A stretch of 64,000 bases of DNA from Cyclobacteriaceae bacterium (GCA_019638255.1 JAHBUD010000002.1:164092-228091); one strand, 5' to 3'. Positions 629 to 54,882 are shown, numbered from the stretch's first letter. Program-made: numbers and translations. Notes: generated by a model not told the origin, from the letters alone.

Positions 629-673
629 AGGTTTTTGGTCAGGCAAAGGTAACCCAATTGACTGCGGATACTA

Positions 674-687
674 CTGATCTTAATCAG
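674..687. promoter_or_regulatory. Perfect 5-4-5 palindrome CTGAT-CTTA-ATCAG, a Crp/Fnr-type operator candidate
   Basis: Read directly as ctaCTGATcttaATCAGtca. It is centred about 52 nt upstream of the FabH-like ATG. The same half-sites recur at 20872-20885 and 54891-54904. Confidence 0.45.
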
Positions 688-7307: not shown

Positions 7308-7323
7308 TATGACTAAAGTCATA
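7308..7323. promoter_or_regulatory. Perfect 6-4-6 palindrome TATGAC-TAAA-GTCATA upstream of the class II RNR gene
   Basis: Read directly. It is centred about 76 nt upstream of the ATG at 7392. The core TGAC-N4-GTCA also occurs at 34302-34313. Confidence 0.35.
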
Positions 7324-7391: not shown

Positions 7392-9242
7392 ATGAACCTT
7401 AACCAACAAGTACTCAGCGACCTAATCATCTACATGAAGTACGCCCGTTACCTGCCCGAACTAAAGCGCAGGGAAACGTGGGATGAAATTTGTGACCGGT
7501 ACCAGCACATGATGGTCGAGAAGTATCCTTTTCAACACGAAGAAATTATTGAGACCATGAAATGGGTACGACAGAAAAAAGTGTTACCCTCCATGCGCGC
7601 CATGCAGTTTGCCGGAACCGCCATTGCGCGGAACAACTCACGCATCTACAACTGTGCTTACCTTCCGGCAGACGATATCCGTGCATTTTCAGAAACAATG
7701 TTCCTGTTACTTGGCGGAACTGGCGTTGGGTACTCCGTACAATACCACCATGTTGAGAAACTCCCGCCCATTCACAAAGCTGAAAAACGAAGGAGATTTC
7801 TCATCGGTGATAGCCTGGAAGGCTGGGCCGATGCCATAAAAGTCTTACTCAAAGGTTATTTCGGCATCAGCGAATACATTCCGGAGTTTGACTACTCCGA
7901 CATTCGACCGAAAGGTGCACGCCTCGTAACAGCCGGTGGAAAAGCACCTGGCCCTGAACCGCTCAAAATATGTGTAGCGCACGTTCAGGCATTACTCGAC
8001 CGAAAAGAAAATGGCGAGAAACTCACACCCCTTGAATGTCACGACCTGATGTGCCACCTGGCCAATGCAGTGCTGGCAGGCGGAATCAGAAGGTCGGCTA
8101 TGATTTCACTCTTCTCGCATGGCGATGAAGAAATGCTCACCTGCAAGTACGGTAACTGGTGGGAGCTAAACGAACAACGTGGTCGCGCCAACAATTCAGT
8201 GGTGTTGCAACGGGATAACATCTCACAAACTGAATTTCTTGATCTCTGGAAAAAAATTGAACTCTCCGGTTCCGGTGAGCCGGGTTTCTATTTTACCAAT
8301 GACCTGGATTGGGGAACAAATCCGTGTTGCGAGATTGCACTTCGTCCATTCCAATTCTGCAACCTGTGCGAAGTAAACGTATCGGATGTGTATACACAGG
8401 ATGAACTTAATGCCCGTGCACGTGCTGCGGCTTATCTTGGCACGTTACAAGCGGGATTTACCGATTTTCACTACTTGCGTGAAATATGGAAAACCACTAC
8501 TGAGCAAGATGCCCTGATTGGCGTGGGCATGACAGGCATTGCCAGCGGTGCCGTTCAAAAACTGGATCTGAATGAAACCGCCCGGGAGGTTAAAAAAGTA
8601 AACCTTGAAGTTTCAGCCAAGATCGGGATACAGTTTGCTGCACGCACCACCACCATCAAACCTTCAGGCACTTCTTCGTTGGTGTTGGGCACATCATCGG
8701 GTATACATGCATGGCATAATGATTATTACATCAGGCGCTTACGCATTGGAAAGAATGAAGCCTTGTACGAATACCTGTGCATCGCTCATCCGGAGTTGTT
8801 GGAGGATGATCTGCTCAACAGCAAGCAGGCCATCATCTGTATTCCGCAAAAAGCACCCGAGGGCAGCATTCTGCGAACAGAACATGTTATGGATTTACTT
8901 GAGCGGATAAAAAAATTCAATGAAGAGTGGGTTCGAAAAGGCTTTCGCAGAGGAAGCAATGCCAACAATGTGTCGGCTACGGTATCCATTGAAGATGGTG
9001 ATTGGCAACGTGTGGGCGAATGGATGTGGGCAAACAAAGCATCCTACAATGGACTCAGTGTGTTGCCCTTCGATACGGGGAACTACAAACAAGCACCCTT
9101 CGAAGATATTACTAAAGAAAAATTCGTTGAACTCGAGAAGAGCCTGAAATCCATTGATCTCACAAATGTTTTCGAAACCGATGATGAAACCGATCATAAA
9201 GCTGAGGCCGCCTGTGCAGGTGGTGCATGTCAGGTTGTTTAA
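7392..9242 (+). CDS. nrdJ: Adenosylcobalamin-dependent class II ribonucleotide reductase, monomeric RTPR-like type
   Basis: 616 aa. Blocks collinear with Lactobacillus leichmannii RTPR as I recall it: ETWDE, IRPKGARLVTAGGKAPGPEPL, AGGIRRSA, RANNSV, GTNPCCEI...FCNL, TTIKPSGT. The C-terminal redox pair is CAGGACQVV. Confidence 0.85.
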   Translation: MNLNQQVLSDLIIYMKYARYLPELKRRETWDEICDRYQHMMVEKYPFQHEEIIETMKWVRQKKVLPSMRAMQFAGTAIARNNSRIYNCAYLPADDIRAFSETMFLLLGGTGVGYSVQYHHVEKLPPIHKAEKRRRFLIGDSLEGWADAIKVLLKGYFGISEYIPEFDYSDIRPKGARLVTAGGKAPGPEPLKICVAHVQALLDRKENGEKLTPLECHDLMCHLANAVLAGGIRRSAMISLFSHGDEEMLTCKYGNWWELNEQRGRANNSVVLQRDNISQTEFLDLWKKIELSGSGEPGFYFTNDLDWGTNPCCEIALRPFQFCNLCEVNVSDVYTQDELNARARAAAYLGTLQAGFTDFHYLREIWKTTTEQDALIGVGMTGIASGAVQKLDLNETAREVKKVNLEVSAKIGIQFAARTTTIKPSGTSSLVLGTSSGIHAWHNDYYIRRLRIGKNEALYEYLCIAHPELLEDDLLNSKQAIICIPQKAPEGSILRTEHVMDLLERIKKFNEEWVRKGFRRGSNANNVSATVSIEDGDWQRVGEWMWANKASYNGLSVLPFDTGNYKQAPFEDITKEKFVELEKSLKSIDLTNVFETDDETDHKAEAACAGGACQVV

Positions 9243-17567: not shown

Positions 17568-20500
17568 TTAAGAGGTTACTTGTTCAGATAAATGTAGAAT
17601 GTCCTTTGCGCGTTGCTCATTATCCCTTTTGGCCAGTTCGGTCAATCGTACGGCTTCTTCGGGATCAGAGAGGTTAAGTGTTTTGTACCGGATTTCTGCA
17701 TCCAGATAATCGTTGAAGTTAACGGCATCTTCTGTGGTAGGAACATCCCACGTAAACGGATTCTGACCATCGGCACGCAGATCAGGATTGAACCTGTACA
17801 TTGGCCAGTAACCACACTTCACGGCTTTCTCCGATTGCTTTTTAGCAAACTTCATGTCGTAGCCGTGCGCAATACAAGGTGAGTATGCGATTATAATAGA
17901 AGGACCATTATGTTTTTCAGCCTCCACAAAAGCAAGCGCTGTTTTTTCCCGATCCATGCCCATGTTAACTACCGCCACATAAGCATTGCCATAGGTAGTC
18001 ATCATGAGTCCGAGATTTTTCTTACCCATTTTTTTACCGTTGGATGCAAACTTGGCCACTGCACCACGAGGGGTTGCCTTGGAAGCCTGACCACCGGTGT
18101 TGGAATACACTTCGGTATCGAGCACGAGCAGGTTTACATTTCGGTTGGAGGCCATTACGTGATCAAGCCCGCTAAAGCCGATGTCGTAGGCCCAGCCATC
18201 GCCACCAAAAATCCATACACTCTTATCTACAAAATAATCCTGTAACTCAATTACTTTTTCGAGCAATGCCCTTTCTTCTTTACCAACAGTTTTTAATTCT
18301 GCTGCCAGCAAAGGCTTCAGGGCATCGGCATGGTCCTTTGCTTCATTCGTGTGTTCATTGAACAAGGCCAATGCCTTTTCAAGCGCTGACTTAACCTCAG
18401 GAGTTTTTACTTTCGGCAGTAAAGCTTCTGCATTTGTTTTGAGCTGTTTGCGGTTTGCATCTACTGCGAGCCGGATGCCAAAACCATATTCAGCATTGTC
18501 TTCAAATAATGAGTTGGCCCATGCAGGTCCTCTTCCCCTTTTATCTTTTGTATACGGTGTTAACGGGAAGGTTCCACCATAAATAGAAGTACAACCTGTA
18601 GCGTTGGCGATAATCATACGGTCGCCAAAAAGTTGTGTAGCCAGGTGGATGTAGGGTACTTCACCACAACCGGAACAGCTTGGAGGATATTCGAGATAGG
18701 GTTCAGCAATGTAAGGCTCTTGCACAAAAGGAAGTTTGTCAATCCAGGTGGCAGGATTGCCCGGCACGCCACGGTATTCAAGTTTTTTTGTACCGGTAGG
18801 CACCGCGCCATTCAACGGCATCAGCGATACCGGAATGTTATCACCTTTTAATCGTAGAATCGGATCCACCACCAGCCGTGCGAAATCATCGGAGCCAGCC
18901 GGAATCAATTCGGATATTTCAGCATACTTTTCAGACTCGGCAGGAACAGGCACCTCAATAATATTATCACAGGTTACATCAATAGCCTTCCAGTTCATCT
19001 CAATAATCTCACGGCCCTTCCGGGCGAACTGTTCTTCAATGTGCTCCTTAATCGTGGTAATTGCCTGTGCCTCCGGCAGTACACCCGACACTTTGAAAAA
19101 GGCTGTCTGCATTACAGAGTTGATTCTTCCTCCAAGGCCAACACTCTTGGCAATTTTGGAAGCATCAATGGCGTATACCTTAATTTTTTTCTTCCAGATT
19201 GTTTCCTGCATATCGCGGGTGAACAACCTGAAAATATTTTCAGGCTTTTGGCTGCTGTTGATCAGGAACGTACCCCCTTCGGTAATGCCCTCTAGAATAT
19301 CGTACTGGCCAATGTATTGTGGACGGTGCAAGGCAACAAAATCAACCTTATTCAACAAGTACTCCGATTGAATTGGATTTTTACCAAAACGCAAATGCGA
19401 AACAGTATACCCGCCTGATTTATTCGAATCATACTGGAAATAGCCTTGCACAAACAGATCGGTGCTATCGCCAATAATTTTAATGGCATTTTTATTGGCA
19501 CTCACCGTACCGTCTGAACCATAGCCCCAGAACTTGCAGCGTACAATACCTTCTTGTTCGGTATCAATCTCTTCTTTTACCGGTATGGATTTATGTGTCA
19601 CGTCATCGTTGATGCCTACGGTAAAACCATGCCAGCCATTATTATCGAGATGATCGAATACGGCTTTCACCAGCGATGGCGTAAATTCCTTTGAGGATAA
19701 ACCATATCGGCCTCCGATAATCTGAATGTCGGGCCGACTGCGAAGTGCTGCCACCACATCTAAAAAGAGGGGATCGCCTAACGCACCAGGTTCTTTCGTG
19801 CGATCAAGCACGGCTATTTTTTTAACGCCCTCGGGTATAACGGCAAGAAAATCTTCCAATGCAAATGGCCTGTACAGGCGAACCTTCACCGCGCCTACTT
19901 TTTCTCCATTGCGTGTTAGATAATTTATGGTCTCTTCTATGGTTTCAGTAGCTGATCCCATTGAAATCAGAATCTTTGTAGCGTTGGGGTCGCCTACATA
20001 TTCGTAAAGGTTGTAAGTCCTTCCGGTTTTCTTTGCGAACAATTCCATGTACTTCTTCACAACACCCGGGCACGCATCGTAATACTTATTCACCGTTTCT
20101 CGGCCTTGAAAATACACATCGGGGTTTTGCGCACCGACTTTGCATACCGGTGCTTCCGGCTTCAATGCGTGCTTACGAAATTCCTCAACATATTTCATGT
20201 CGAGCATGGATTTTAGATCACTGTAATCCAGCGGAATAATTTTTTGTATGGAATGCGAGGTGCGGAAGCCATCGAAAAAATGCAAGAAAGGAATTCTGGA
20301 TTCCAGCGTTGAAAGGTGTGCAATGGTTGCCATGTCCTGCGCTTCCTGCACATTACCCGATGATAACAAGGCAAAACCGGTTCCGCGTGTTGCCATTACA
20401 TCGGAGTGATCGCCAAATATCGATAGGGCCTGACAGGCCAATGAACGTGCCGAAACGTGAAATACTGTAGGAATCATTTCACCGGCAATCTTGAACATAT

Positions 20501-20798
20501 TGGGCACCATGAGCATCAGTCCTTGCGATGCCGTAAACGTGGTAGCCATAGCCCCACCCGACAGGGCACCATGAATGGCCCCGGCCGCTCCGGCTTCCGA
20601 TTGCATCTGCACAACATCTACAGATTCACCGAAAATATTTTTTCTGCCCTCTGCCGACCAGGCATCTGCCCGTTCGCCCATATCCGATGAAGGTGTAATC
20701 GGGTAAATGGCAGCCACTTCACTAAAGGCGTAGGCAATGTTGGCTACTGCCGTATTGCCATCGGTATTGATATACGCTGATTTTTTCTCTTTGGCCAT
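17568..20798 (-). CDS. nifJ: Pyruvate:ferredoxin/flavodoxin oxidoreductase (NifJ-type single-chain PFOR) lacking the ferredoxin domain
   Basis: 1076 aa with IYPITPSS, a TPP-binding GGDGWAYDIG...NTGGQ block and proximal-cluster cysteines (CSGCGE, ATGCTS, YSPCIAHG). No CxxCxxCxxxCP motif occurs anywhere in the protein. Confidence 0.9.
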   Translation of the reverse strand: MAKEKKSAYINTDGNTAVANIAYAFSEVAAIYPITPSSDMGERADAWSAEGRKNIFGESVDVVQMQSEAGAAGAIHGALSGGAMATTFTASQGLMLMVPNMFKIAGEMIPTVFHVSARSLACQALSIFGDHSDVMATRGTGFALLSSGNVQEAQDMATIAHLSTLESRIPFLHFFDGFRTSHSIQKIIPLDYSDLKSMLDMKYVEEFRKHALKPEAPVCKVGAQNPDVYFQGRETVNKYYDACPGVVKKYMELFAKKTGRTYNLYEYVGDPNATKILISMGSATETIEETINYLTRNGEKVGAVKVRLYRPFALEDFLAVIPEGVKKIAVLDRTKEPGALGDPLFLDVVAALRSRPDIQIIGGRYGLSSKEFTPSLVKAVFDHLDNNGWHGFTVGINDDVTHKSIPVKEEIDTEQEGIVRCKFWGYGSDGTVSANKNAIKIIGDSTDLFVQGYFQYDSNKSGGYTVSHLRFGKNPIQSEYLLNKVDFVALHRPQYIGQYDILEGITEGGTFLINSSQKPENIFRLFTRDMQETIWKKKIKVYAIDASKIAKSVGLGGRINSVMQTAFFKVSGVLPEAQAITTIKEHIEEQFARKGREIIEMNWKAIDVTCDNIIEVPVPAESEKYAEISELIPAGSDDFARLVVDPILRLKGDNIPVSLMPLNGAVPTGTKKLEYRGVPGNPATWIDKLPFVQEPYIAEPYLEYPPSCSGCGEVPYIHLATQLFGDRMIIANATGCTSIYGGTFPLTPYTKDKRGRGPAWANSLFEDNAEYGFGIRLAVDANRKQLKTNAEALLPKVKTPEVKSALEKALALFNEHTNEAKDHADALKPLLAAELKTVGKEERALLEKVIELQDYFVDKSVWIFGGDGWAYDIGFSGLDHVMASNRNVNLLVLDTEVYSNTGGQASKATPRGAVAKFASNGKKMGKKNLGLMMTTYGNAYVAVVNMGMDREKTALAFVEAEKHNGPSIIIAYSPCIAHGYDMKFAKKQSEKAVKCGYWPMYRFNPDLRADGQNPFTWDVPTTEDAVNFNDYLDAEIRYKTLNLSDPEEAVRLTELAKRDNEQRAKDILHLSEQVTS

Positions 20799-20871
20799 GA
20801 TGATAAAAGTTTAACGGGAGGAAGTTATCCCAATCGGTCACGCGGTTAGCTGTCGCTCATCACATGGAATG

Positions 20872-20885
20872 CTGATTTATATCAG
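20872..20885. promoter_or_regulatory. Perfect palindrome CTGAT-TTAT-ATCAG in the divergent nifJ / crp-fnr promoter region
   Basis: Read directly as aatgCTGATttatATCAGgtt. The centre is about 80 nt upstream of the nifJ ATG and about 100 nt upstream of the regulator ATG. Confidence 0.5.
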
Positions 20886-20978
20886 GTTGATGTAAAAACA
20901 TGTCGCTTCCACGCCTGATTGCAGAAAAGCAAGTTGAGTTTACCCAAGTAATCCCTAAATTTCAGTAATCATCGCCAC

Positions 20979-21575
20979 ATGATACCGGATAAAATATTGA
21001 CGCAATACCATGCACGCCTTGTACGTTTGCGCAAAGACCAGGTGCTTTTTGAGGAAGGCTCCAATGCCACTGACTATTTTCAGGTAGCAGAAGGCGAAGT
21101 GCGCATGTACATCCTCAATCATGAAGGGCAGGAATTTACCCAAGGTATTTTTCATGCCGGTGAGAGTTTTGGAGAACCTCCCTTGTTTGGAAATTTTGCT
21201 TACCCCAGCACTGCCGTTGCACTCACACCAGGGAGCGTTTGGCGCTTACCGAAAGTTGAATTTTTTGAGTTGCTTAAAAATAACTTCGACATCCACTTAA
21301 AATTGAACCACGTGCTTTGCAACCGGCTTCAATATAAGTCGATGATTCTCACCGAAATTTCATCGCACACACCGGAGCACCGATTAACCACCATATTAAA
21401 ATACCTCAAATCGAAAATTGCCCCTGAGTCGGAAACGGAGAAAATGATCATTCCCTATACCCGGCAACAATTGGCTGACATGACCAGCCTGCGGGTGGAG
21501 ACGGTTATACGCACCATTAAGCGCATGGAAAAGGAAGGCAAGGTAGAGTTGGAAGGGCATAAGATTTTGTTTTGA
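20979..21575 (+). CDS. Crp/Fnr-family transcriptional regulator (no N-terminal Cys cluster)
   Basis: 198 aa with a cNMP-binding-like beta-roll (GESFGEPPLF) and a C-terminal HTH. The recognition helix SLRVETVIRTIKRM matches the FNR-type E--xR pattern. Confidence 0.85.
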   Translation: MIPDKILTQYHARLVRLRKDQVLFEEGSNATDYFQVAEGEVRMYILNHEGQEFTQGIFHAGESFGEPPLFGNFAYPSTAVALTPGSVWRLPKVEFFELLKNNFDIHLKLNHVLCNRLQYKSMILTEISSHTPEHRLTTILKYLKSKIAPESETEKMIIPYTRQQLADMTSLRVETVIRTIKRMEKEGKVELEGHKILF

Positions 21576-25037: not shown

Positions 25038-25415
25038 CTAGCTCCTATTTCCCAACAACCCCCTCTTATACTGAAACAAATCAGCTATGGAGAGGGCACG
25101 TGTTTTTACCTGGGTAGCATTGTATCCTTCAAAATGCACATCTACAGTTTTAGTAAACAATTCCAGCCAGCGGGTAAAATGTTCCTTGTTTATATTCAGA
25201 TGAATATGTTTGGCAAAAGGATTACCGTTATACGACATCTCGCCCAACACAATCGAAGCCCAAAAGTCGTACATAATGGGTAAGTGATTAGGCCAATCTA
25301 CATGGGAAAAAACCGGGGCCAGTAATTCATCTTGATTGACCTTTTCATAAAAACGGTCAACCAACAGTTTTACATCATCCCGTGTAGTAATATCCTTCCT
25401 GGTTTTACTCACCAT
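25038..25415 (-). CDS. Group III truncated haemoglobin-like globin
   Basis: 125 aa with FYEKV..D..L.PVF, W..H...MYDFW, Y.GNPF.KH and HF.RWLELF patterns. Confidence 0.7.
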   Translation of the reverse strand: MVSKTRKDITTRDDVKLLVDRFYEKVNQDELLAPVFSHVDWPNHLPIMYDFWASIVLGEMSYNGNPFAKHIHLNINKEHFTRWLELFTKTVDVHFEGYNATQVKTRALSIADLFQYKRGLLGNRS

Positions 25416-26611
25416 TTAACCAGTGCTGTTTTAATCTGTTTTGTTTCGGCATCTGTCCAGGCTGCCATCACGCCATCGTTAGCTTTGGTTAGTTGCGGAA
25501 AACCGCTGGCTCTTGCTGAGGATGAAGCAGCCACGGTTACGGGTTGCCCTATCTCTCCACGGCTGTTTACCTCAATAATTTTAATTTCCGATCCCTCCAT
25601 CCAGCTAACCAACGCACGGTTTTCTTCCAGCATTACCAAATCTACCCGTCCAATTGTCTCAGTTCTATCAACCCTGATAGGATCACCAAAAGTTTCTCCG
25701 CCATCAGCAGAGAATACCACATTAACTTCGCCCTCGTTTCGTGCCAGGGTAAACCAGGCTACCGCTACTTGGTTGCCTATAGCCTCGCATCGCGGTCCAT
25801 TCACCGGGCATCCATTGATTTCCCACCCATCCTGATAAACAGGCTTTGGTGTCGTCCACTTTCCATCAACCCAGCGCACGATAGAAATGTCACGGATTTC
25901 CTTATCAGAACGATCACGGTAGATGACTATCGGCCCATTGCTGGTAATGGCTGAGGTGGTCTGGCAACAATCGCATGTACGGGTATCAAGCTCCCACTCC
26001 TCCAGTTTCTTTCCATCTGAATTCAATACGGCAGATCGAAGGCTCATCATACCACGATGACCATGATCCGCATGGTTGGCACCATCCGCAGTAACGGTAT
26101 TGCGGCCATCCAACCACGAAACAAAAAAGTTTTCATCGTAAGGAATCCACGAAACAAAGCCATGCTCAGCTTGCTTGGCATCATCATGCAATAAAAAAGG
26201 AGTTGACCATGTTTTTCCATCAGGAGATGTGGCGACCTTTACATCATATGCAAACACATCCTCACCTGATTTCTCGAGGAAATGACTGATAAATTTTCCC
26301 TGATCATTGGAAATGGCCATCGGATAATCCGCCCAGTTAACAAACCAATCCGAGCCGCTGGCAATCACTTGTGGTTCACTCCATGCGTTGTTGTGCCAAA
26401 CTGCCAGCTTGAAAAAATTAAGGGTGTCCTCACGTTCTATCCATGATAATATAATCTTGCCATGCGCGTCTGTGAAGAGCCACGGTTCTCCTGAAAATTC
26501 ACGTGCCGGATTTTCAATTATGATAACCTCAGGAGACCGTGAAGAATCACAACTAATGACTGAGTACATAATGATGATGAGAAGAATCCACCGAAGGTTC
26601 ATAAATTTCAT
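25409..26611 (-). CDS. BNR/Asp-box beta-propeller lipoprotein (sialidase-fold family), function unknown
   Basis: 400 aa with a lipobox (VISC), Asp-boxes SPDGKTWS and SADGGETF, and a cysteine cluster CDCC...GCPVNGPRC. Its stop overlaps the globin start (ATGGTGA). Confidence 0.65.
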   Translation of the reverse strand: MKFMNLRWILLIIIMYSVISCDSSRSPEVIIIENPAREFSGEPWLFTDAHGKIILSWIEREDTLNFFKLAVWHNNAWSEPQVIASGSDWFVNWADYPMAISNDQGKFISHFLEKSGEDVFAYDVKVATSPDGKTWSTPFLLHDDAKQAEHGFVSWIPYDENFFVSWLDGRNTVTADGANHADHGHRGMMSLRSAVLNSDGKKLEEWELDTRTCDCCQTTSAITSNGPIVIYRDRSDKEIRDISIVRWVDGKWTTPKPVYQDGWEINGCPVNGPRCEAIGNQVAVAWFTLARNEGEVNVVFSADGGETFGDPIRVDRTETIGRVDLVMLEENRALVSWMEGSEIKIIEVNSRGEIGQPVTVAASSSARASGFPQLTKANDGVMAAWTDAETKQIKTALVKW

Positions 26612-26694
26612 GGAGGTGACAATTAAGAACGCAAGGTATCAATAAGGATAATTTCAAACAGCATTAATAGCGCAAATCATGTAACTATTAAACA

Positions 26695-27129
26695 CTACGG
26701 GTATACAAACCTAAAACTTAACCCGGTTACCACAAAGCTAACGGCCAATACCGTTGCCAGTATGATATGAAGCGCCAGTAAGGACAATTTCTCTGTTGTA
26801 AGCTTAGGTATAATAAAGAGCCGGGCATGCACCGCTAACCCAATAGTACCAAGCAGTAAACCAATTTTAATCCAGAGCAATACATGATGATGCGTGGCCA
26901 ATGAAAACCAATAGGAAAACGGTACATAGATCAATGCCATCCAGAAGCCGGTAACTACTTGTACCAACAGGGCTGGTATACCTACACGCTCATAATGCTT
27001 TTCAAAGTGTTGAATGATGCTGAGGTTTTTTGTTCGCAGGGCTGCGGGTAAAAAACCAATCGACAAGATCAGGTGTCCACCTGCCCAAACCGTTGCACCC
27101 AAAACATGAAAAAGCACCAACCACTTCAT
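26695..27129 (-). CDS. CopD-like 4-TM membrane protein
   Basis: 144 aa. The start HVLGATVWAGGHL is typical of the CopD C-terminal module as I recall it. It begins 2 nt after the nosY stop. Confidence 0.45.
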   Translation of the reverse strand: MKWLVLFHVLGATVWAGGHLILSIGFLPAALRTKNLSIIQHFEKHYERVGIPALLVQVVTGFWMALIYVPFSYWFSLATHHHVLLWIKIGLLLGTIGLAVHARLFIIPKLTTEKLSLLALHIILATVLAVSFVVTGLSFRFVYP

Positions 27130-27131
27130 CG

Positions 27132-27899
27132 TTACAAATCCTTGCGGCTAAAAATCCTCGTTGCACCCCATACCGGAAGGGTAATCCATAGGGCTAATAC
27201 AACTGATGAAAATATCAGCCCTCTGCTGCTACCGAAAAACTCTTTATAAAATGCACCGGTATAGCCCATTAATGCAGAAATATCCAACTGAAGTAGCATG
27301 AGTATCCGAGCCAGGTCAACCGGGTTGAGTGATATCAATGCCAGTGTAGCTTTTTCAAGCGGATAATCCATAAAGGTGTAGATGATCCACATCAACAGGC
27401 CATCATAAATCAAAGAAAAGTAAAACCAGAATAACAACGCCACGCCAATGGCTTTAGCTTTATCGCGGGTAAGCACCGAAGAAAGAAAGGCCAGTGAAAC
27501 AAAAACGAGTGTAAGCATAATGCCTGAATACAAGAGCGTAAATCCACTGGCATCGGCACCGTATAGAACCATCGGTAACCCCACCCCTGCCGTAAAAGCA
27601 AAACAAAGTGAAATGGCTACCGCGAAATATTCACTAAGAAATATGACCCTCCGATTTACGGGCTGCGATAGCATTAACTCAATAAACTCATACGAATTAT
27701 AAAAGTGAATGGTGCTGAAAACAATACTCACCAACGGCACCACCATCAACACAATATTCATCAAGCTTAAAATTACCTTACCGGTATCCGTATCAAGTTG
27801 AAACATGGCCACCGTACACAGCAACAGAAAGAGCGTGTAGAGCATAATAAACCGCGTTCGCAGGATATCGTAAAAAACATATTTAACAATTCTTACCAT
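27132..27899 (-). CDS. nosY: Nos maturation ABC transporter permease NosY
   Basis: 255-aa, 6-TM ABC-2-type permease directly after nosF in the nosDFY order. Confidence 0.85.
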   Translation of the reverse strand: MVRIVKYVFYDILRTRFIMLYTLFLLLCTVAMFQLDTDTGKVILSLMNIVLMVVPLVSIVFSTIHFYNSYEFIELMLSQPVNRRVIFLSEYFAVAISLCFAFTAGVGLPMVLYGADASGFTLLYSGIMLTLVFVSLAFLSSVLTRDKAKAIGVALLFWFYFSLIYDGLLMWIIYTFMDYPLEKATLALISLNPVDLARILMLLQLDISALMGYTGAFYKEFFGSSRGLIFSSVVLALWITLPVWGATRIFSRKDL

Positions 27900-27908
27900 G
27901 ATGTTGAT

Positions 27909-28652
27909 TTATTCATTGGTGGTGATCTTAACATCTACATGCTTTTCTTCCAGGCCTCGAATCAATTTGGCCATCGCTTTACCCAGCTTTTGTTCACTGG
28001 TAATATCTTTTAGCTCTTCAACGGAGTTGTTATACCGAACATGCCCTTCCTGAAGGTAAACCACTTCCGTGGAGAGCTCATCGAGGTCACTCATAATGTG
28101 TGAGGTAATGATGAGTAACTTTCCGGCTTCCTTTTCTTTAAGAATTTTTTCTTTCAGGATTTCTACTGACACCGGATCCAATCCAGCCGTGGGCTCATCT
28201 AAAAATAAAATGGGTGCGTGAAATAAAAAGGCCAATGCCGCACTTACTTTCTGGCGGGTTCCACCCGATAAGGTATGCATCCGCTTATCGAACATTCTAT
28301 CCAATCGGAAGGATTCAATCAATTCATCATCTACCAGCGGTGGATTGTTCCGGATGTTCCGCATCATATCAAACAACTGCCCGATGCGCATATTATCCGG
28401 GTACCGACCAATTTGTGGCATGTAACCAATCTTCTCCCGATAGTGCCAGTGATGCTTAATGATTTCGCCATCGACCACAATATTGCCCGAGGTAGGTATC
28501 ACCATACCCAACACACTTTTAATGAGCGTAGTTTTACCCGATCCGTTGGGGCCAATAAGCGCATACGATTTACCCGAAGCAAACTCAACACTTACTCCAT
28601 CCAGCGCCCACAGCTTTCCGAATTTCTTTTTAAGTTGTTGTATTGAGATCAT
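27909..28652 (-). CDS. nosF: Nos maturation ABC transporter ATPase NosF
   Basis: 247 aa with Walker A GPNGSGKT, the signature LSGGTRQK and Walker B LFLDEP. Confidence 0.9.
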   Translation of the reverse strand: MISIQQLKKKFGKLWALDGVSVEFASGKSYALIGPNGSGKTTLIKSVLGMVIPTSGNIVVDGEIIKHHWHYREKIGYMPQIGRYPDNMRIGQLFDMMRNIRNNPPLVDDELIESFRLDRMFDKRMHTLSGGTRQKVSAALAFLFHAPILFLDEPTAGLDPVSVEILKEKILKEKEAGKLLIITSHIMSDLDELSTEVVYLQEGHVRYNNSVEELKDITSEQKLGKAMAKLIRGLEEKHVDVKITTNE

Positions 28653-29898
28653 AAGGCTTCATGCTTGGATAGTCGTCTTTTAAATTTTCAGGGGTAACTG
28701 CCGGAAAAACTTTTTCAGCGCGGTCGAGCAGATAAACCAAAAAACTGCGCCATAATAGCACTGCAGTGGGTATACGTTCAACAATCATAGTATACATATT
28801 AACCGGGCGATGCGGCACATCGCCAATGCCATCGCGATTTAAATCATAACCCTGGTATTTATCCCAATAATTACGGTTGATGGTATTGAGTACAAGCGTT
28901 CCATTCGTGGCAAAATCGAACGTGTTGCGCTTGAAATTATTCCCGGTAAACGTATTGGCATCGCAGCTGGCTTGCAGTTTAATAGCCCAGCCGTTTTCCG
29001 AAAATAGATTTCCGGTAAACTCTGTGCGGCTTGTGCCCTCCATATAAATGGCTATGGTGTTTTGAATAAACCGGTTATTCAACACCTGGCTATCGCTGAT
29101 ATCTTTTAACAATAAACCATACACACTATTGCCCCAGTTTTTTTCGAATACATTATAAGTCATCTTAACGTTGCGCGTGTACATCACAGCAACACCGGCA
29201 CCATTCTCCCTGAAAATATTGTTATGATATTCATCATCATGCGAAAACATAAAGTGCAGACCATAACGCAGGTTATGCTCACTCAGGTTTCCTTCAATAA
29301 CGGATTGCGTTACAAACTCAAAGTAAATCCCGTCACGGTGCCCGCGAATGGTGTTTTTTCGGATGATAGCCTGTGAACATTGCCACAAGTGAATACCATT
29401 TCCGGTTTCGTACTCATTACGTACTGCGGCCTGAAAAACATTATCTTCGATAACACTGAACCCACTGTTTGACAAATGCACCCCGAAGAAAGTATTGATG
29501 AATTCGTTCTTACGGATTGTAAGGAAGTCGGCTTGCAAAGCCCCAATTCCAGCGAGATCCTTCATACTGGAGGTTCCGCTGTTCACGATTTTAAATCCTG
29601 CAATGGTAACATGCCTTGCGGCTACGGTAAATACTTCTGTTTTGTATTCTCCGTCAATCTCAGGCTTGCTTTCACCCAGCAACACCAGGGTCTTGTCAAC
29701 AATAATATTTCCTTCGCGGTAAATCCCGGGTTTCACGATAATCGTATCACCCGGAAGTGCTATAGCTATTGCCTGCCGGATACTTTTAATCTGCCCACCC
29801 GGCTGTACCACTATACTACCTGCCATTGTAGCGGCCGACAATAATAAGAGTGTGATGGTTGTATTTATTCGTATTGGATTCATTTTGCGTGGCGACAA
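28630..29898 (-). CDS. nosD: Periplasmic beta-helix copper-binding maturation protein NosD
   Basis: 422 aa with a signal peptide and repeated parallel-beta-helix units (N.F..N..GI.L). It sits between nosL and nosF. Confidence 0.88.
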   Translation of the reverse strand: MSPRKMNPIRINTTITLLLLSAATMAGSIVVQPGGQIKSIRQAIAIALPGDTIIVKPGIYREGNIIVDKTLVLLGESKPEIDGEYKTEVFTVAARHVTIAGFKIVNSGTSSMKDLAGIGALQADFLTIRKNEFINTFFGVHLSNSGFSVIEDNVFQAAVRNEYETGNGIHLWQCSQAIIRKNTIRGHRDGIYFEFVTQSVIEGNLSEHNLRYGLHFMFSHDDEYHNNIFRENGAGVAVMYTRNVKMTYNVFEKNWGNSVYGLLLKDISDSQVLNNRFIQNTIAIYMEGTSRTEFTGNLFSENGWAIKLQASCDANTFTGNNFKRNTFDFATNGTLVLNTINRNYWDKYQGYDLNRDGIGDVPHRPVNMYTMIVERIPTAVLLWRSFLVYLLDRAEKVFPAVTPENLKDDYPSMKPYDLNTTT

Positions 29899-29944
29899 AG
29901 TTCATCCTGAATATACTGCTTCAAATCAAACAGCAATATCAGGA

Positions 29945-30379
29945 CTATTTAAACTGTGTTGTCAATTCTCCCCAGGTAAGGTAAATACCGTTCCATTGCT
30001 TTTTATGTTCGTTCTTACTTTCATCCGTTTCAAAAGATGCCACCTGGCTAGCCATCGGGCTTCTTACTTCCGGAGATTTAATATAAAATGCTTCACCTGC
30101 ACCAATTAGTTTTTCGGGTTGGGCGTAATCAATCACGAGTTTATACGCTACGTCACGATCTTCGACATCTTCAGAGTCGATGAAACCGATCATGCAGTTC
30201 ACATCATCGAACTTGTATACTTTTCCTTTTGTCGTGACTACTTCTGCTCCAAAACGCTTATCCATTATGGTCATTTTACAAGCGTAGCATTGATCCTTAC
30301 CGAACACAATGGGTTCAGGTTTAACCTGGCAACCCAACAGTACAACAGCAGCAAAAAAAATAGTGGCAATTGTTTTCAT
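29945..30379 (-). CDS. nosL: Copper chaperone lipoprotein NosL
   Basis: 144 aa with the lipobox LLGC and the motif CYACKMTI. Confidence 0.85.
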   Translation of the reverse strand: MKTIATIFFAAVVLLGCQVKPEPIVFGKDQCYACKMTIMDKRFGAEVVTTKGKVYKFDDVNCMIGFIDSEDVEDRDVAYKLVIDYAQPEKLIGAGEAFYIKSPEVRSPMASQVASFETDESKNEHKKQWNGIYLTWGELTTQFK

Positions 30380-30963
30380 AACGATGCTGATTTTGGGTAT
30401 TTAAAAATTTCAAGTGCTAATACAGCCATTATCGCGAGGCCAACAACTAAAAATACCCACCCGCCAATATCAGGACCAGAAAATGCCGTAAAGTTCAGCA
30501 ATTGTTTTGTGCCAATAAGTGGAGGTTGGTAGGCCATACCAGGTACGACAATAGGCGCTGTGGGATCGAGGTTGTGCCCGTAGTCATAACCCCACAGGTA
30601 AAAGTCGACCAAGGCAGCAATACCGGTGGCTACAAACAACACGGTAAATGCAGCCAACATAAACCTACGGTTCGCCAGCGCGGTGAGTAGCCCAAAGCCA
30701 ATAAGTGCAACAACAATGTATTTCATGTATCCAAACTCAGGAAACATACTAACTTCAATATGCTTCATGCCGATGTAGTGATTCAACGCACTGATGATTT
30801 TAACATCGCCTGTCAGGTTATCAATCCAAATTTTCATTTCCAACCCTTCCGGATACTGTGGCGCCCACATCAATATTTGCCATAACGGTACAAAGAATGC
30901 ACTGACCATGGCCAGTGAAGCTATTGCGATGATGATGCGAGTCGATGTTTTTAACTTTTTCAT
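30376..30963 (-). CDS. nosB: Clade II nos-associated integral membrane protein (NosB-like)
   Basis: 195 aa with about 4 TM segments. It lies immediately downstream of nosZ, as in clade II clusters, and has an ATGA overlap with nosL. Confidence 0.6.
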   Translation of the reverse strand: MKKLKTSTRIIIAIASLAMVSAFFVPLWQILMWAPQYPEGLEMKIWIDNLTGDVKIISALNHYIGMKHIEVSMFPEFGYMKYIVVALIGFGLLTALANRRFMLAAFTVLFVATGIAALVDFYLWGYDYGHNLDPTAPIVVPGMAYQPPLIGTKQLLNFTAFSGPDIGGWVFLVVGLAIMAVLALEIFKYPKSASL

Positions 30964-30979
30964 AAGATCATACTTTGGT

Positions 30980-31030
30980 AAGCGCCCCTTCCCGATTCCG
31001 TTAGCGCAGAACGGGACTGGGCGCTTTTTT
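30980..31030. other. Long imperfect stem-loop in the nosZ-nosB intercistronic gap
   Basis: AAGCGCCCC...CCGTT-agcgcag-AACGG...GGGCGCTT, followed by TTTTT on the plus strand (antisense to the nos genes). Confidence 0.45.
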
Positions 31031-31069
31031 CAACCTGCAAACTATGGAAACGCAGGGTGGTCAGTGCCA

Positions 31070-33046
31070 CTATTTCTGGCCACCTGTATCTCCGGTTGAA
31101 AATTTCAACGGTGTGTTTGAACCTGCTGGCGATACACGTGCATAACCTTGCATTTCCTGGTGGAGTGCAGAACAGAAGTCTGTGCAATAAAAAGGCACTA
31201 CACCTGGTGTTAGCGGCTTCCACAACAAGGTCTGCGTTTCACCCGGCATAATCAGTATCTCAGCATTGGTAGCTCCTTTAATAGCAAAGCCGTGTGGTAC
31301 ATCCCAATCCTGTTCCAGGTTGGTTACATGGAAGTACACATTATCCCCAACACGAATGCCTTCAATGTTATCGGGTGTTAAGTGTGAACGAATGGCTGTC
31401 ATGTACACATGCACATCGTTTCCTTTACGCTCAACCCGAGCCATCTTTTCACCTTTAGCAGCATAAGGATGTTCGTTGTGTTCAATCGGGTAAATCTTTA
31501 CCGATTTATCCTTTATCAAACTGGCGGGTAATGCTTCGGCATAGTGTGGTTCACCAATGGTAGGAAAATCCAGCAGAAGCTGCATCTTGTCGCCCTCGAT
31601 GGAATAGAGTTGTGCACTTTGTGTCAGCTCAGGACCTGTAGGCAGGTAACGATCTTTGGTAATTTTATTATAGGCAATTACATACTTGCCATGTGGCTTT
31701 GCGGTTGGGCCGCCAGGTACGCATAAGTGACCAATAGAATAATAGGTAGGAACGCGGTCAAGTATCTCCAGTGTTTTAACATTCCACTTCACGATTTCAG
31801 ATGAAACAAAGAAAGAGGTGTAGGCATTTCCTTTAGCATCAAACTCAGTGTGCAAAGGGCCAAGACCTGGCTTCTTCACTTCACCGTGCAACGCTGATTC
31901 GTATCGGATTACCGGAATGCCATCAAAATCACCTTCATAGTCTTTATTGGTGATGGCAGTTTGGATTTTACCGAATGAGAACACCGGCATTACAGCCGCC
32001 AGCTTTCCACTGCCAACGATAAACTCACCACTTGGGTCAACATCGCAACCGTGTGGCGACTTAGGGCAAGGAATGAAGTAAACGATGTCGGGGAATTCCA
32101 TAACATCCAGAACAGTAACCTCTTCAATCATCTTACTGGTTGCTGAATGTGTCCTTTCATCGTACACATTGTGGGCATACTTAACTTTTTCTTTCTTGCC
32201 TTTACCTTGTGCCAGGTACTCTTCGGCTTTCTTCCAGTTCACGGCCATAATAAAATCCTTGTCGTTACGGGAAGCATTTACCTCCAACAAAGTATACGCT
32301 TGTTCGGTATTGTAGCAAGAGAAGAAAAACCATCCATGTGAGGGGCCTTTACCGGCACGGCTTAAATCGTAATTAAAGCCAGGAGTACGCAATTGAAATT
32401 CAATGTTCATGCGTCCGGTTTCTGGATTTACTTTTATGAAGGATATGGATCCTTTAAAATTTTCCTTGTACGAGCTAATCGGAACATCCCGGTTATCTCC
32501 TAATGGTATGCTGAATCGTGTACCTGCCACAACATACTCCGTGTTTTCTGTAATGAATGGCGATGAGTGATTACCACCGCTATTGGGTATCTCAATAATT
32601 TCTGCTGTGCGGAATGTTGTTAAATCGATACGGGCAACACGTGGCGTATTGTTGGCGTTACCAAACAACCAACGACCATCATGCTCACCTTTTGTTGTTG
32701 AAAGTGCCGGATGGTGCAGGTCATCCCATGGAATGTATCCATGCGAAGTCATCAGCATAGGCTTGGTTTCCTCGCTATATCCCCAACCGCTCATCGGGTC
32801 TTCTGAAAAAACCGGAATATTCCTGAACAAGCGGCCTGAAGGCAATCCGTAAACAGCCATCTGACCATTAAAACCTCCGGACACAAAATTGTAAAACTCG
32901 TCATACTGCCCCGGTGCAACGTATACTTTTGATGCTGCATCACCGGTGGTAACACCAACAGGGCCTTTGGGCTTGCAACTGTTTAGCACGATCAGCAAAG
33001 ACGCTATCGAAACCAACAGGATTATCCTACTTATTTTCATGGTCAT
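31070..33046 (-). CDS. nosZ: Nitrous-oxide reductase, clade II (Sec-dependent) NosZ
   Basis: 658 aa with the C-terminal CuA motif CTDFCSALHQEM. The N-terminus MTMKISRIILLVSIASLLIVLNSC has no twin-arginine motif and has a Cys at the cleavage region. Confidence 0.95.
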   Translation of the reverse strand: MTMKISRIILLVSIASLLIVLNSCKPKGPVGVTTGDAASKVYVAPGQYDEFYNFVSGGFNGQMAVYGLPSGRLFRNIPVFSEDPMSGWGYSEETKPMLMTSHGYIPWDDLHHPALSTTKGEHDGRWLFGNANNTPRVARIDLTTFRTAEIIEIPNSGGNHSSPFITENTEYVVAGTRFSIPLGDNRDVPISSYKENFKGSISFIKVNPETGRMNIEFQLRTPGFNYDLSRAGKGPSHGWFFFSCYNTEQAYTLLEVNASRNDKDFIMAVNWKKAEEYLAQGKGKKEKVKYAHNVYDERTHSATSKMIEEVTVLDVMEFPDIVYFIPCPKSPHGCDVDPSGEFIVGSGKLAAVMPVFSFGKIQTAITNKDYEGDFDGIPVIRYESALHGEVKKPGLGPLHTEFDAKGNAYTSFFVSSEIVKWNVKTLEILDRVPTYYSIGHLCVPGGPTAKPHGKYVIAYNKITKDRYLPTGPELTQSAQLYSIEGDKMQLLLDFPTIGEPHYAEALPASLIKDKSVKIYPIEHNEHPYAAKGEKMARVERKGNDVHVYMTAIRSHLTPDNIEGIRVGDNVYFHVTNLEQDWDVPHGFAIKGATNAEILIMPGETQTLLWKPLTPGVVPFYCTDFCSALHQEMQGYARVSPAGSNTPLKFSTGDTGGQK

Positions 33047-33068
33047 TATCGTTTAGTTATTGTTAGAT

Positions 33069-33614
33069 TTATTTTTTGTCTGGTGGAAGCAACACGGTGT
33101 CGATTACATATACTGTTCCGTTAGAAGCGCTTACCGATCCGATAACATTTGCTCCGTTAATGGTAATCTTACCATCAGCAGAAACATTCAAGGTCACATT
33201 ATCCAGGTTAACCTGATTTAAGGTCATGCCATCACGGATTTGCTCTTCCCGAATGTTGCCCACATACACATGGTACTCCAGTATATTCTGAAGTGTTTCC
33301 TTGTTTTCAGGCTTCACCAGGTTTTCAACCGTACCAGTTGGCAATTTTGCAAACGCATCATCAGTTGGCGCAAAAACAGTAAAGGGTCCGGCATTGGAAA
33401 GCGCATCCACATACTCGGCAGCCTGCAAAGCGGCAACCAATGTTTTATGCACGTTCGAGTTTACTGCGATGCGAACAACATCGGGTTTAGATGTCTCATC
33501 TTTAACCGTAGACTGGCCACCGCCAAGAGGTGCCGATGCAGTTTCCTGGCTGGCCGGTTGCTGCTGACCACAGGCCAACAGCAACAGTAAGGGTATTACT
33601 AGTAAGTATTTCAT
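33069..33614 (-). CDS. Fasciclin (FAS1) domain lipoprotein
   Basis: The ORF track gives 33069-33698. The internal ATG at 33612-33614 gives the lipoprotein signal MKYLLVIPLLLLLACG. FAS1 motifs are GPFTVFAPTDDAF and the C-terminal NGTVYVIDTVLLP. Confidence 0.85.
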   Translation of the reverse strand: MKYLLVIPLLLLLACGQQQPASQETASAPLGGGQSTVKDETSKPDVVRIAVNSNVHKTLVAALQAAEYVDALSNAGPFTVFAPTDDAFAKLPTGTVENLVKPENKETLQNILEYHVYVGNIREEQIRDGMTLNQVNLDNVTLNVSADGKITINGANVIGSVSASNGTVYVIDTVLLPPDKK

Positions 33615-33633
33615 ATAGACTGGGTTTTGGTGA

Positions 33634-34095
33634 TTATTTCTCGCCATCATTTTGACGCATAAACTCCAGAATGTCGCGTGCATCGCCAATGGATACATTC
33701 TGGTTAGGCATGCGCATCAAGCACAGCTCCAGTAACTTTTGAGCTTCTTCGTCCTCATCCAGCATCACATCCACGTTGGTGATCATGTTCATGATCCATT
33801 CCGGTTTTCTGCGCTTGGTTATATCCTGGAAACCGGGTCCTACTACACGTTGATCGTCAAGCTTATGACATGCTGAACACTTCATTTCATAAATATCCAG
33901 GCCTCGTTGAACCCGCTCGGCATCCAAAGGATTATGAAGGGTAACATTCTTTACCTGTCCGATTCCTTTAGTAGGGTCTGTCACTTCTTCAACAGCGCTT
34001 TTCATAGCACCGGTAGTCTCGCTTACCTGAGGTTTATCTGGAGCACAAGCCGCCAGTATAGCAGCGGCAACAAGAACAGTCATCAGCTTTTTCAT
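33634..34095 (-). CDS. Monohaem c-type cytochrome lipoprotein (nos-cluster cytochrome)
   Basis: 153 aa with the signal/lipobox LAAC and a single CSACH haem motif. It is the first gene of the nos string. Confidence 0.85.
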   Translation of the reverse strand: MKKLMTVLVAAAILAACAPDKPQVSETTGAMKSAVEEVTDPTKGIGQVKNVTLHNPLDAERVQRGLDIYEMKCSACHKLDDQRVVGPGFQDITKRRKPEWIMNMITNVDVMLDEDEEAQKLLELCLMRMPNQNVSIGDARDILEFMRQNDGEK

Positions 34096-34196
34096 AGTTA
34101 TATAGGATTTAGTTTGCAGTTGCGGTTTGGTTTAAATTATGCACAAGGTATGCCCGTGGTTACCTTGACCTATATGACCCCAATCATAAAGAGCGT

Positions 34197-34210
34197 TTGA
34201 TTTTTATCAC
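34197..34210. promoter_or_regulatory. FNR-like box TTGAT-TTTT-ATCAC upstream of the nos gene string
   Basis: Read directly. It is centred about 108 nt upstream of the cytochrome c ATG and matches 9 of 10 positions of TTGAT-N4-ATCAA. Confidence 0.45.
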
Positions 34211-34327
34211 ATGTAAAAGCAGCGAGAATATCCAGAATTGGAGATTTTTGTTCCTTGTGTCAATCAAGAATTACGATTCTTAAAGAGAATGTGAACTTCA
34301 CTGACAAAAGTCAGTAATCGAAAATTT

Positions 34328-37826: not shown

Positions 37827-37902
37827 GACCTTCGGGGATTACTTTCAATAGTAAAATTACCTGCTTAAGTTCTGAATTTCGTGACGGTAATCATAGCTAA
37901 AA

Positions 37903-37916
37903 CTGATTAAAATCAC
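37903..37916. promoter_or_regulatory. FNR-like box CTGAT-TAAA-ATCAC upstream of usp-ccoI-ccoS
   Basis: Read directly. It is centred about 83 nt upstream of the usp ATG. Confidence 0.4.
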
Positions 37917-37986
37917 GGTAAAGATGCCAACCAGTCTGTTTAAGCAAACAAAAAATCGGTTATCCAGAGCAAAGAGAACTGCTTTG

Positions 37987-48691: not shown

Positions 48692-49029
48692 CTGGTTTTG
48701 TTTGTTGGTTCTGTTTTCAAGGGTAAAAGTATTGCGGGTAAAAAATTAAATTATTGATTCACGTCACAACTCTAGGTGACTTTAATCAGTCTGAATGATG
48801 GAATGGTTGTGCTTAAAATCAAAGAGAATTAAGTGGATTTAACCCTTGTTAGCAAGCATATCGTGAAACATTCACCTAGCACATGGTTGGTCACAACGGA
48901 AAAAATTTAGAAGCCAAACTATGAAATGTGCCCATCAACCTATTTAACATGCATATTCATTGATACTATAGATTTTTTTATCAACTTAGTCCTGCTACTT
49001 TCAGAGTCCTATTTCAAACCGTGCTCGTC

Positions 49030-54868: not shown

Positions 54869-54882
54869 TTGAGAAATATCAA
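54869..54882. promoter_or_regulatory. FNR-like box TTGAG-AAAT-ATCAA
   Basis: Read directly. It matches 9 of 10 positions of TTGAT-N4-ATCAA. Its centre lies 22 bp from the perfect CTGAT box at 54891-54904. Confidence 0.35.

Follow-up and report, generated by a model that had tools for sequence, protein, structure and literature searches.

The stretch of DNA analysed here (the window) spans 64,000 nt of contig C2 (C2:164092-228091) in the 4.2-Mb, 5-contig assembly of a Cyclobacteriaceae bacterium, labelled G000 among the genomes compared. The names borne by homologues put it in an uncultured genus of Cyclobacteriaceae/Flammeovirgaceae (Cytophagales). The element under study is a perfect palindrome, CTGATTTATATCAG, at 20872-20885, between two divergent genes. 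On the minus strand lies the gene for pyruvate:flavodoxin/ferredoxin oxidoreductase (PFOR or nifJ; 17568..20798, 1076 aa; TIGR02176, 1485 bits), which heads the gene string PFOR-DHOD-like-flavodoxin-...-rnfBCDGEA extending down to 9415. On the plus strand lies the gene for a 198-aa Crp/Fnr-family regulator (20979..21575; PF00027 cNMP_binding, 9e-21; PF13545 HTH_Crp_2, 7e-9). The centre of the palindrome (20878.5) was measured to be 80.5 nt from the ATG of PFOR and 100.5 nt from the regulator ATG at 20979, and an earlier note on this DNA had put these distances at about 80 and 100 nt.

That note had also claimed that the ten fixed positions of the palindrome, CTGATNNNNATCAG, recur in the window more often than by accident, and the counts agree with this. 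Three perfect matches are present, all of them intergenic: CTGATCTTAATCAG at 674-687, the copy at 20872-20885 (box 1 of the PFOR promoter) and CTGATTATTATCAG at 54891-54904. Dinucleotide-preserving shuffles averaged 0.03 matches, and three were never reached in 100 of them. When one mismatch was allowed, 12 sites were observed in the window vs 1.7 expected. The factual statements of the note, on box positions, geometry, neighbours, recognition helix and the lack of a Cys cluster in the regulator, were all found to be correct.

The PFOR promoter has a tandem layout. A degenerate second box (box 2; gene-strand GTGATGAGCGACAG, 20850..20863, minus strand) is located 22 bp nearer to PFOR than box 1, and its right half reads GACA in place of rTCA. 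The -7 promoter element of Bacteroidota is TAnnTTTG. The putative -7 element of PFOR (gene-strand TAACTTCC, 20820..20827, minus strand) lies 30 nt past the centre of box 2 and 52 nt past that of box 1. The form nTGAT-N4-GACAG was kept in 5/5 promoters of the short-type PFOR (L029-L033), in which the -7 element is invariant, and the layout of box 1, box 2 and TAACTTCC is conserved in five genomes. The position orthologous to box 1 reads CTGACATAAATCAT in L031-L033. A second, 1204-aa type of PFOR has the promoter box (G/A)TGATTTC(C/T)(G/A)TCAG, and in the promoters of both types a box is found at -73 to -87.

The putative -7 element of the regulator gene (TAAATTTC, 20956-20963), on the other hand, is ~77 nt away from the box, which is no canonical distance. 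Because the tandem layout is phased to the PFOR -7 element and that of the regulator gene lies ~77 nt off, the palindrome is predicted to serve PFOR and not the regulator gene. The earlier description of the site as a divergent promoter holds for its position between the two genes but not for its phasing, which fits the PFOR promoter only. The divergent arrangement of PFOR and the regulator is real in G000 but otherwise limited to G010, G006 and G041.

Distribution and architecture of the box

We compared the frequencies of the motif in intergenic and coding DNA of G000. Genes were called by a simple codon-usage picker of open reading frames (ORFs), which left 8.5% of the genome intergenic and over-extended the start codons. 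A position weight matrix (PWM) was made from orthologous sites pre-selected by the regular expression TGA-N6-TCA. We observed the following. The perfect CTGAT-N4-ATCAG occurs 18 times in 4.2 Mb vs ~4.8 expected from base composition, with 11 intergenic and 7 coding sites. This amounts to a 16.8-fold higher density in intergenic DNA, as the hypothesis of an operator in the earlier note would predict. The pattern TGAYNNNNRTCA had 105 intergenic and 267 coding sites (density ratio 4.2), and control palindromes (TGAA..TTCA, TCAT..ATGA, and N3 or N5 spacers) gave ratios of 0.7-1.8. At PWM scores >=15 the sites numbered 42 intergenic and 17 coding (density ratio 26), and the intergenic enrichment climbs steadily as the score rises. 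The pattern MTGAYWWWWRTCAK had 23 intergenic and 3 coding sites, and it was more frequent than its reversed control in 33/33 genomes of the genus. There are 69 intergenic boxes with a PWM score >=13 in G000; among those listed at this threshold, the box at 20872-20885, with a score of 18.4, is joint top.

To define the box by ten fixed positions proved too strict. The density ratios by outer base were 4.5-fold for TTGAT..ATCAA, 16.8-fold for CTGAT..ATCAG and 9.7-fold for ATGAT..ATCAT, and the outer position in the intergenic boxes of G000 is A in 38%, C in 30%, T in 21% and G in 11%. The intergenic boxes of G000 do not, therefore, keep the outer T of the TTGAT-N4-ATCAA class. Footprinting of orthologous promoters, which had likewise been proposed as a check, revealed conserved boxes at PFOR, EF-G2, USP-ccoI, nos and FabH-like genes (described below), where the position of the box is kept while the spacer and the outer bases vary. 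The conserved unit across these promoters is nTGAy-N4-rTCAn, and all three perfect copies as well as the orthologous sites keep TGAy-N4-rTCA. Thus the ten fixed positions are recurrent and palindromic as claimed, but the outer C/G and inner T/A are not conserved in the orthologous promoters. The proposed assignment to FNR/CRP-family operators of 5-4-5 geometry is consistent with the TGA-N6-TCA core that copies and orthologous sites share.

The boxes are also phased to promoters. Measured to the first base of the -7 element, their centres cluster at upstream distances of 29-30 nt or 51 nt; matches numbered 15 at 28-31 nt vs a control mean of 5.5, and 15 at 50-52 nt vs a control mean of 3.9 (control maximum 11). 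Activators at class II and class I positions are centred about -41.5 and -61.5 from the transcription start, and the two distances would roughly correspond to these, the absolute positions being our estimates. Beside strong boxes of G000, 13/14 secondary boxes within a range of 14-40 bp are offset by 22-23 bp. The partner boxes (at 37880-37917, 54869-54904, 20850-20885 and in other promoters of G000) often have a GC-rich spacer and are more degenerate.

We considered whether the palindrome could be no protein operator at all, its copies arising by chance, as a small dispersed repeat, or as a hairpin acting as a terminator or RNA element. Each copy is able to form a hairpin of 5-6 bp, and 3/11 of the intergenic perfect copies are located just downstream of another gene. 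These hairpins are weak, however (-4.4 to -6.1 kcal/mol). The flanks of the copies were compared and similarity was absent, therefore they do not form a dispersed repeat; repeat and terminator readings were rejected on the unlike flanks and the weak hairpins. The excess of copies in the window over the shuffled mean, the 26-fold intergenic enrichment that grows with the PWM score, the conservation of orthologous position with varying spacer and outer bases, the fixed phasing to -7 elements and the 22-bp partner rule speak against this explanation as well, and we give it hardly any credence. From its distribution, the palindrome is taken to be a protein operator, neither a repeat nor a terminator.

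Other boxes of the window fit the same architecture. The copy at 674..687 precedes the gene of a FabH-like KAS III (2-646, minus strand), and its centre is 29.5 nt from a perfect -7 element, TACCTTTG (reverse complement of 644-651). This box and its -7 element TACCTTTG are kept, at -46 to -53, in seven genomes of the genus including G000. The FabH-like orthologue of G010 (L249, G010:C9:106050-107132) has one in-frame TAG.

The copy at 54891-54904 forms a tandem with TTGAGAAATATCAA (54869-54882), 22 bp apart, upstream of the gene for the alternative elongation factor EF-G2 (55058-57184, plus strand; NF058620 match). Two boxes at an exact spacing of 22 bp, such as CTGATGGTAGTCAG and TTGATTTAAATCAT, were present in 15/22 EF-G2 promoters of the genus. 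In the promoters of those genomes a third half-site is found another 22 bp on, and the perfect copy of G000 aligns there.

A further tandem, CGTGACGGTAATCATA and ACTGATTAAAATCACG (37880..37917, 22 bp apart), is located upstream of a tandem universal stress protein (USP) gene (36987-37826, minus strand; checked with Pfam) and of a ccoI-type P-type ATPase gene (34518-36944). The upstream box of this USP-ccoI locus was present in 29/29 loci read in the genus, at about -80 in 28 of them and at -124 in L119, with scores of 11.3-18.4. The second box, 22 bp nearer to the gene, scores >=11 in 15 loci, and a lower-scoring one is still visible in others (for example G022, G042 and G018). The clade II nos cluster (25038-34095; nosZ, 31070-33046) is headed by a cytochrome c gene (33634-34095, minus strand), and two boxes (34196-34211 and 34300-34315) are located upstream of this gene; the nos promoters of relatives carry boxes too.

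The box TATGACTAAAGTCATA (7308..7323) has a DUF456 gene (6787-7257, minus strand) on one side and on the other nrdJ, the gene for class II ribonucleotide reductase (RNR; 7392-9242, plus strand), with the -7-like TACATTTC 30 nt from it towards the RNR gene. The box GGTGACTTTAATCAGT (48775..48790), which has a weaker partner 22 bp off, is upstream of a YceI-like gene (48113-48691, minus strand). At 45010-45025 and 45313-45328 we observed two more sites: a near-box (CCCGATGTAAATCAGG) in the divergent promoter of genes for an arginase-family protein and a pyridoxal phosphate (PLP) decarboxylase of polyamine metabolism, and a high-scoring box just within the PLP-decarboxylase ORF as called; the start codon of this ORF may be mis-called.

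Taken together, the intergenic boxes would mark about 50-70 promoters as the predicted regulon. Within the window it includes nrdJ, the clade II nos cluster, USP-ccoI, YceI, PFOR-Rnf and EF-G2. Outside the window, box-linked genes are those for the cbb3 oxidase (ccoNO), the anaerobic C4-dicarboxylate transporter (Dcu), PPDK, GTP-PEPCK, a 2-oxoacid:acceptor oxidoreductase, a type III sulfide:quinone reductase (SQR), NqrF and a NuoEF-like flavoprotein. At least six box-linked universal stress proteins were recognized by eye from N-terminal similarity; the Pfam check covers the USP of the window (36987-37826). KatG and LysR-type (OxyR-like) regulator genes, both read by eye, and a 97-aa gene, read as a ribosome hibernation factor without an NCBIfam match, are also box-linked. 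The gene content is that of a classical FNR/FixK low-oxygen regulon, and the operator nTGAy-N4-rTCAn is predicted to mark a genus-wide regulon of low oxygen or energy limitation.

The box-linked SQR (C1:2332672-2333922) matches NF049943, 'type III SQR, selenoprotein subtype'. Also outside the window, an 894-nt stretch (C2:162744-163637) that lies between ccoNO and the FabH-like gene has no convincing ORF and ends in a hairpin and a T-run; a small RNA or a small membrane peptide (67-aa ORF) could be encoded in it.

Candidate readers of the box

G000 holds two Crp-type proteins besides the 198-aa regulator. One of these is a hybrid response regulator of 353 aa (C2:150237-151298), in which a receiver (REC) domain is joined to cNMP and HTH(Crp) domains (REC-Crp hybrid; helix SESVIR). 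Directly before its gene is that of a FixL-type haem-PAS histidine kinase (C2:148915-150240). The pair (C2:148915-151298) lies 12.8-15.2 kb to the left of window base 1, and a box, ACTGATTTTTGTCATA, is present at C2:148907, upstream of the kinase gene. The PAS domain of the kinase matches B. japonicum FixL with an E-value of 2.6e-16 (phmmer), PERYRSQH being aligned with PEPDRSRH and GVGRD with GIGRI; in our reading, the proximal His (haem ligand) and the distal GxGR Arg of FixL lie in these motifs. The kinase fits the FixL haem-PAS pattern, and haem binding is predicted.

This pair is widely conserved. The REC-Crp hybrid is present in 32/33 genomes of the genus, and the pair was also found in Ohtaekwangia, Chryseolinea, Dawidia, Fulvivirga, Runella, Dyadobacter and beyond, with the PAS kinase kept in 58/64 full-length loci. 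Cultured bacteria with both the pair and the box include Ohtaekwangia koreensis DSM 25262 and Chryseolinea serpens DSM 24574. The sequence nTGAyTTTTrTCAn occurs just upstream of the kinase gene in 47/66 diverse loci vs 5.4% of random windows, and the pair together with its box is conserved across Cytophagales and other Bacteroidota. These observations make the REC-Crp hybrid the best-supported predicted reader of the box.

The 198-aa regulator is a plausible binder, probably a secondary one. Its recognition helix, RVETVIRT, reads SLRVETVIRTIKRME, and the VETVIR helix is invariant in 112 orthologues. PDB matches include DNR, CRP, FNR and FixK2, the best being DNR (E 8e-14). The protein has a single Cys, C114, so that the four Cys ligands of the [4Fe-4S] oxygen sensor of FNR (an N-terminal cluster and a central Cys) are lacking; H106, C114 and H134 are invariant across orthologues and are candidate ligand or redox residues. 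By its cNMP-type beta-barrel and C-terminal Crp-type HTH it is a member of the Crp/Fnr superfamily but not FNR proper, because the Cys cluster is missing. Both the E-x-x-x-R helix and the absence of the FNR Cys cluster had been pointed out in the earlier note.

Outside the four genomes with the divergent arrangement, the regulator gene comes directly after that of the class II RNR, or it borders on nosF/nosY, an OsmC-like gene and a truncated globin gene. On all 12 contigs with both genes, 7-20 kb separate it from the cytochrome c gene of nos. Its conserved genomic partner is accordingly the nos cluster or the class II RNR gene, not PFOR. One genome, G019, has three paralogues of the regulator, two of which adjoin its two nos clusters.

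One alternative is that the box is read by the adjacent 198-aa regulator alone, which would regulate itself and a private regulon of PFOR, the FabH-like gene and EF-G2. The box does sit between the divergent PFOR and regulator genes, the VETVIR helix of the protein is of the FNR type and invariant in its orthologues, and the regulator was found in every checkable PFOR-bearing genome. In at least 10 orthologues (including L002-4 and L016-21) the regulator gene itself is preceded by a box at class II distance. The EF-G2 boxes follow the presence of the regulator: they occur in 15/15 genomes with a copy >=76% identical, in 0/4 without it and in 0/3 with a copy of 67-72% (Fisher test ~0.005, although about two independent phylogenetic events underlie this co-occurrence). 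At the order level, just one more genome with EF-G2 was found (G034); it has the REC-Crp hybrid only, and its one box is degenerate and lies at class II distance, which favours neither reader.

In five genomes of the genus without the 198-aa regulator (G007, G018, G022, G042 and G023), however, USP-ccoI and nos boxes persist. The box pattern is above control in all genomes of the genus, these five included, the same box precedes the operon of the FixL-like kinase and the REC-Crp hybrid in genera distant from this one, and adjacency of the regulator to PFOR is confined to one clade. The 198-aa regulator is not the sole candidate, because the USP-ccoI and nos boxes persist without it, the REC-Crp hybrid is near-universal and the kinase box is conserved. 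We consider a reader role for the adjacent regulator alone to be quite improbable. The earlier proposal that this protein reads the box keeps its helix, its position and the tracking of EF-G2 boxes in its favour, but not the five genomes that have boxes and no such regulator. Counts of boxes per genome, 6-18 without the regulator vs 6-44 with it, gave no clean split. A phyletic separation of the two regulators was tried and failed: USP-ccoI and nos boxes occur with or without the 198-aa regulator, and only EF-G2 boxes track it.

Alternatively, the REC-Crp hybrid could be the sole reader, the 198-aa regulator being a mere target that binds another motif or does not bind the boxes. This is consistent with the almost universal presence of the hybrid in the genus and the conservation of the kinase-gene box across families, with the independence of the core regulon boxes from the 198-aa regulator, and with the phasing of the G000 box to PFOR instead of the regulator gene. 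Proteins with the FNR/FixK/DNR-type helix all read TTGA-N6-TCAA. The 198-aa protein shares the E-x-V-I-R signature, and its V-E-T-x-x-R helix is of that type; we noticed no second palindrome in excess around its orthologues, and EF-G2 boxes are absent where it is absent. These points argue against an exclusive role of the hybrid, which we regard as unlikely though not negligible.

We therefore favour, with moderate confidence, a reading in which the palindrome is an FNR/FixK-type activator operator with the REC-Crp hybrid as its primary predicted reader and the 198-aa regulator as a second tier on the same box. Readers of the box would be proteins with an E-x-V-I-R recognition helix. Low oxygen would be sensed by the FixL-like kinase, which would phosphorylate the REC-Crp hybrid; as a FixL-type haem-PAS kinase is predicted to drive this hybrid, oxygen is the presumed signal. 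The phosphorylated hybrid would bind single or tandem boxes and activate transcription. At the PFOR promoter, two Crp/Fnr-type dimers would lie on one face of the DNA at the boxes 22 bp apart, with box 1 roughly in a class I and box 2 in a class II position, and recruit RNA polymerase to PFOR-flavodoxin-Rnf. The 198-aa regulator, box-controlled itself in most relatives and nos-linked, would act as the second tier on the same boxes, possibly adding PFOR and EF-G2 to the regulon, in a manner likened to FixK2 to NnrR or ANR to DNR. What the sequences show is the motif, its enrichment, conservation and phasing, and the genes that make up the regulon; the assignment of protein to DNA, activation rather than repression, and the oxygen signal are what we infer.

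Several points weigh against the two-tier reading. The intergenic calls depend on a crude ORF caller, and the sites behind the PWM had been filtered beforehand for TGA-N6-TCA. At PFOR, box 2 carries a core mismatch and scores below threshold, and the -7 element has two mismatches to TAnnTTTG. The co-occurrence of EF-G2 boxes with the regulator reduces to about two phylogenetic events, and the two candidate binders cannot be told apart by sequence alone. Finally, G022 is without both candidate regulators and yet keeps its boxes. Either its 95%-complete assembly misses their genes, or, possibly, another protein also reads the box: a third Crp-family paralogue, with the helix SREVISR, is found in genomes without the 198-aa regulator (L276 in G022, L279 in G007 and L280 in G042), and it is a possible additional reader. 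In G000 the third paralogue (C1:2309252-2309869) reads RVVVSR, with no Glu, which could be specificity drift or functional replacement.

Relation to known systems and meaning of the proposed circuit

Among known systems, two cascades come nearest: FixL-FixJ-FixK2 (to NnrR) of the rhizobia Bradyrhizobium and Sinorhizobium, and ANR-to-DNR of P. aeruginosa. As in the FixL cascade, a haem-PAS sensor kinase, with a PAS domain matching FixL, stands on top. The predicted activators are, like FixK2 and DNR, Crp/Fnr-type proteins without the Cys cluster, with a box resembling TTGA(T/C)-N4-(G/A)TCAA, and the proposed two tiers of regulators on one box recall FixK2-NnrR and ANR-DNR. The cbb3 oxidase, universal stress proteins and N-oxide reductases are predicted targets here as in FixK/ANR regulons, and are reportedly shared with the core regulons of FnrL/FixK. 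A published account of these core regulons is PMC2908626. FixK-type regulators are cofactor-less and are switched on by an oxygen-sensing two-component system; bearing on this are the class II boxes before the regulator gene in L002-4 and L016-21 and the presence of the FixL-like kinase with its REC-Crp hybrid. DNR is the best solved relative of the 198-aa protein, if only at E 8e-14. Regulators of the DNR/NnrR type sense NO through haem and are linked to N-oxide reductase genes; of these traits, the linkage (to nos) is seen for the 198-aa regulator. Unlike FixLJ, the system lacks a stand-alone FixJ and has its receiver domain joined directly to the Crp/Fnr module. The outer base of the box prefers A or C over T, a strict 22-23 bp tandem rule and Bacteroidota -7 TAnnTTTG promoters apply, and the regulon includes PFOR-Rnf and EF-G2, all of which differ from FixK/ANR.

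With E. coli FNR the system shares the 5-4-5 inverted repeat with its TGA-N6-TCA core, the V-E-T-x-x-R helix, class II- and class I-like positions, and anaerobic targets such as Dcu and PFOR-type enzymes. The 198-aa regulator differs from FNR in having no N-terminal Cys cluster; with one Cys it cannot hold a [4Fe-4S] cluster. Its helix has Ile in place of Ser212, and the box has no conserved outer T. Nss-type regulators (NssA/B/C of Wolinella and NssR of Campylobacter) are Crp/Fnr proteins without a Cys cluster that control N-oxide responses including clade II nos; they belong to another phylum, and their published boxes are reported to differ from the box described here.

The link to EF-G2 suggested a comparison with Cur (BT4338/MalR) of Bacteroides, a Crp/Fnr-like master regulator and direct activator of fusA2, the EF-G2 gene (PMC6989115, PMC10294740), with the consensus wwwTATGTTnTAnAACATAwww (PMC6989115). 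Both systems have a Bacteroidota Crp/Fnr-like regulator without cAMP and, before an EF-G2 gene, a 5-4-5-like palindrome that in G000 would be bound by such a regulator. Cur, however, responds to carbon limitation, whereas the regulon described here looks oxygen-linked. The core ATGTT-N4-AACAT of the Cur operator TATGTTnTAnAACATA is not enriched in intergenic DNA of G000 (1 intergenic vs 10 coding sites). On reading the EF-G2 leader, without a separate scan, no Cur site was seen; the leader has TGAy-N4-rTCA boxes. The box as a Cur operator was ruled out, as the consensus differs and the core is not enriched.

Taken by itself, the palindrome is an unremarkable box of the FNR/FixK class, and its value is in the system it exposes. 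It appears to belong to an uncharacterised variant of an oxygen-response circuit and is placed where it would drive the PFOR-Rnf operon. In the literature searched, we found no experimentally described oxygen- or N2O-responsive transcription factor for aerobic or micro-aerobic Bacteroidota, and no described FNR/FixK-type system or clade II nos regulation in Bacteroidota. Aerobic and micro-aerobic Bacteroidota are major carriers of clade II nosZ, an N2O sink. The locus offers a testable circuit, with a defined operator, a tandem 22-bp architecture at fixed -7 distances and two candidate regulators. The predicted regulon would tie N2O reductase, the cbb3 oxidase, class II RNR, stress proteins, PFOR-Rnf and EF-G2 to one signal. 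Here the PFOR-Rnf electron route is unusual, and the EF-G2 of Bacteroides is reported to lack GTPase activity. Crp/Fnr-type control of EF-G2, known from Cur of Bacteroides, would have a second case in Cytophagales, where the operator is different and the signal probably is too.

More tentatively, and with considerable doubt, we suggest that the 198-aa regulator is an undescribed, nos-linked, second-tier sensor of NO, N2O or redox that acts through H106, C114 and H134 and shares the operator of the REC-Crp hybrid. In one clade it may have captured EF-G2 and the PFOR-flavodoxin-Rnf string, whose PFOR is without a ferredoxin domain. If this is true, translation and pyruvate oxidation would be rewired along with N2O respiration as oxygen falls, a hypoxic counterpart to the control of EF-G2 by Cur in gut Bacteroides.

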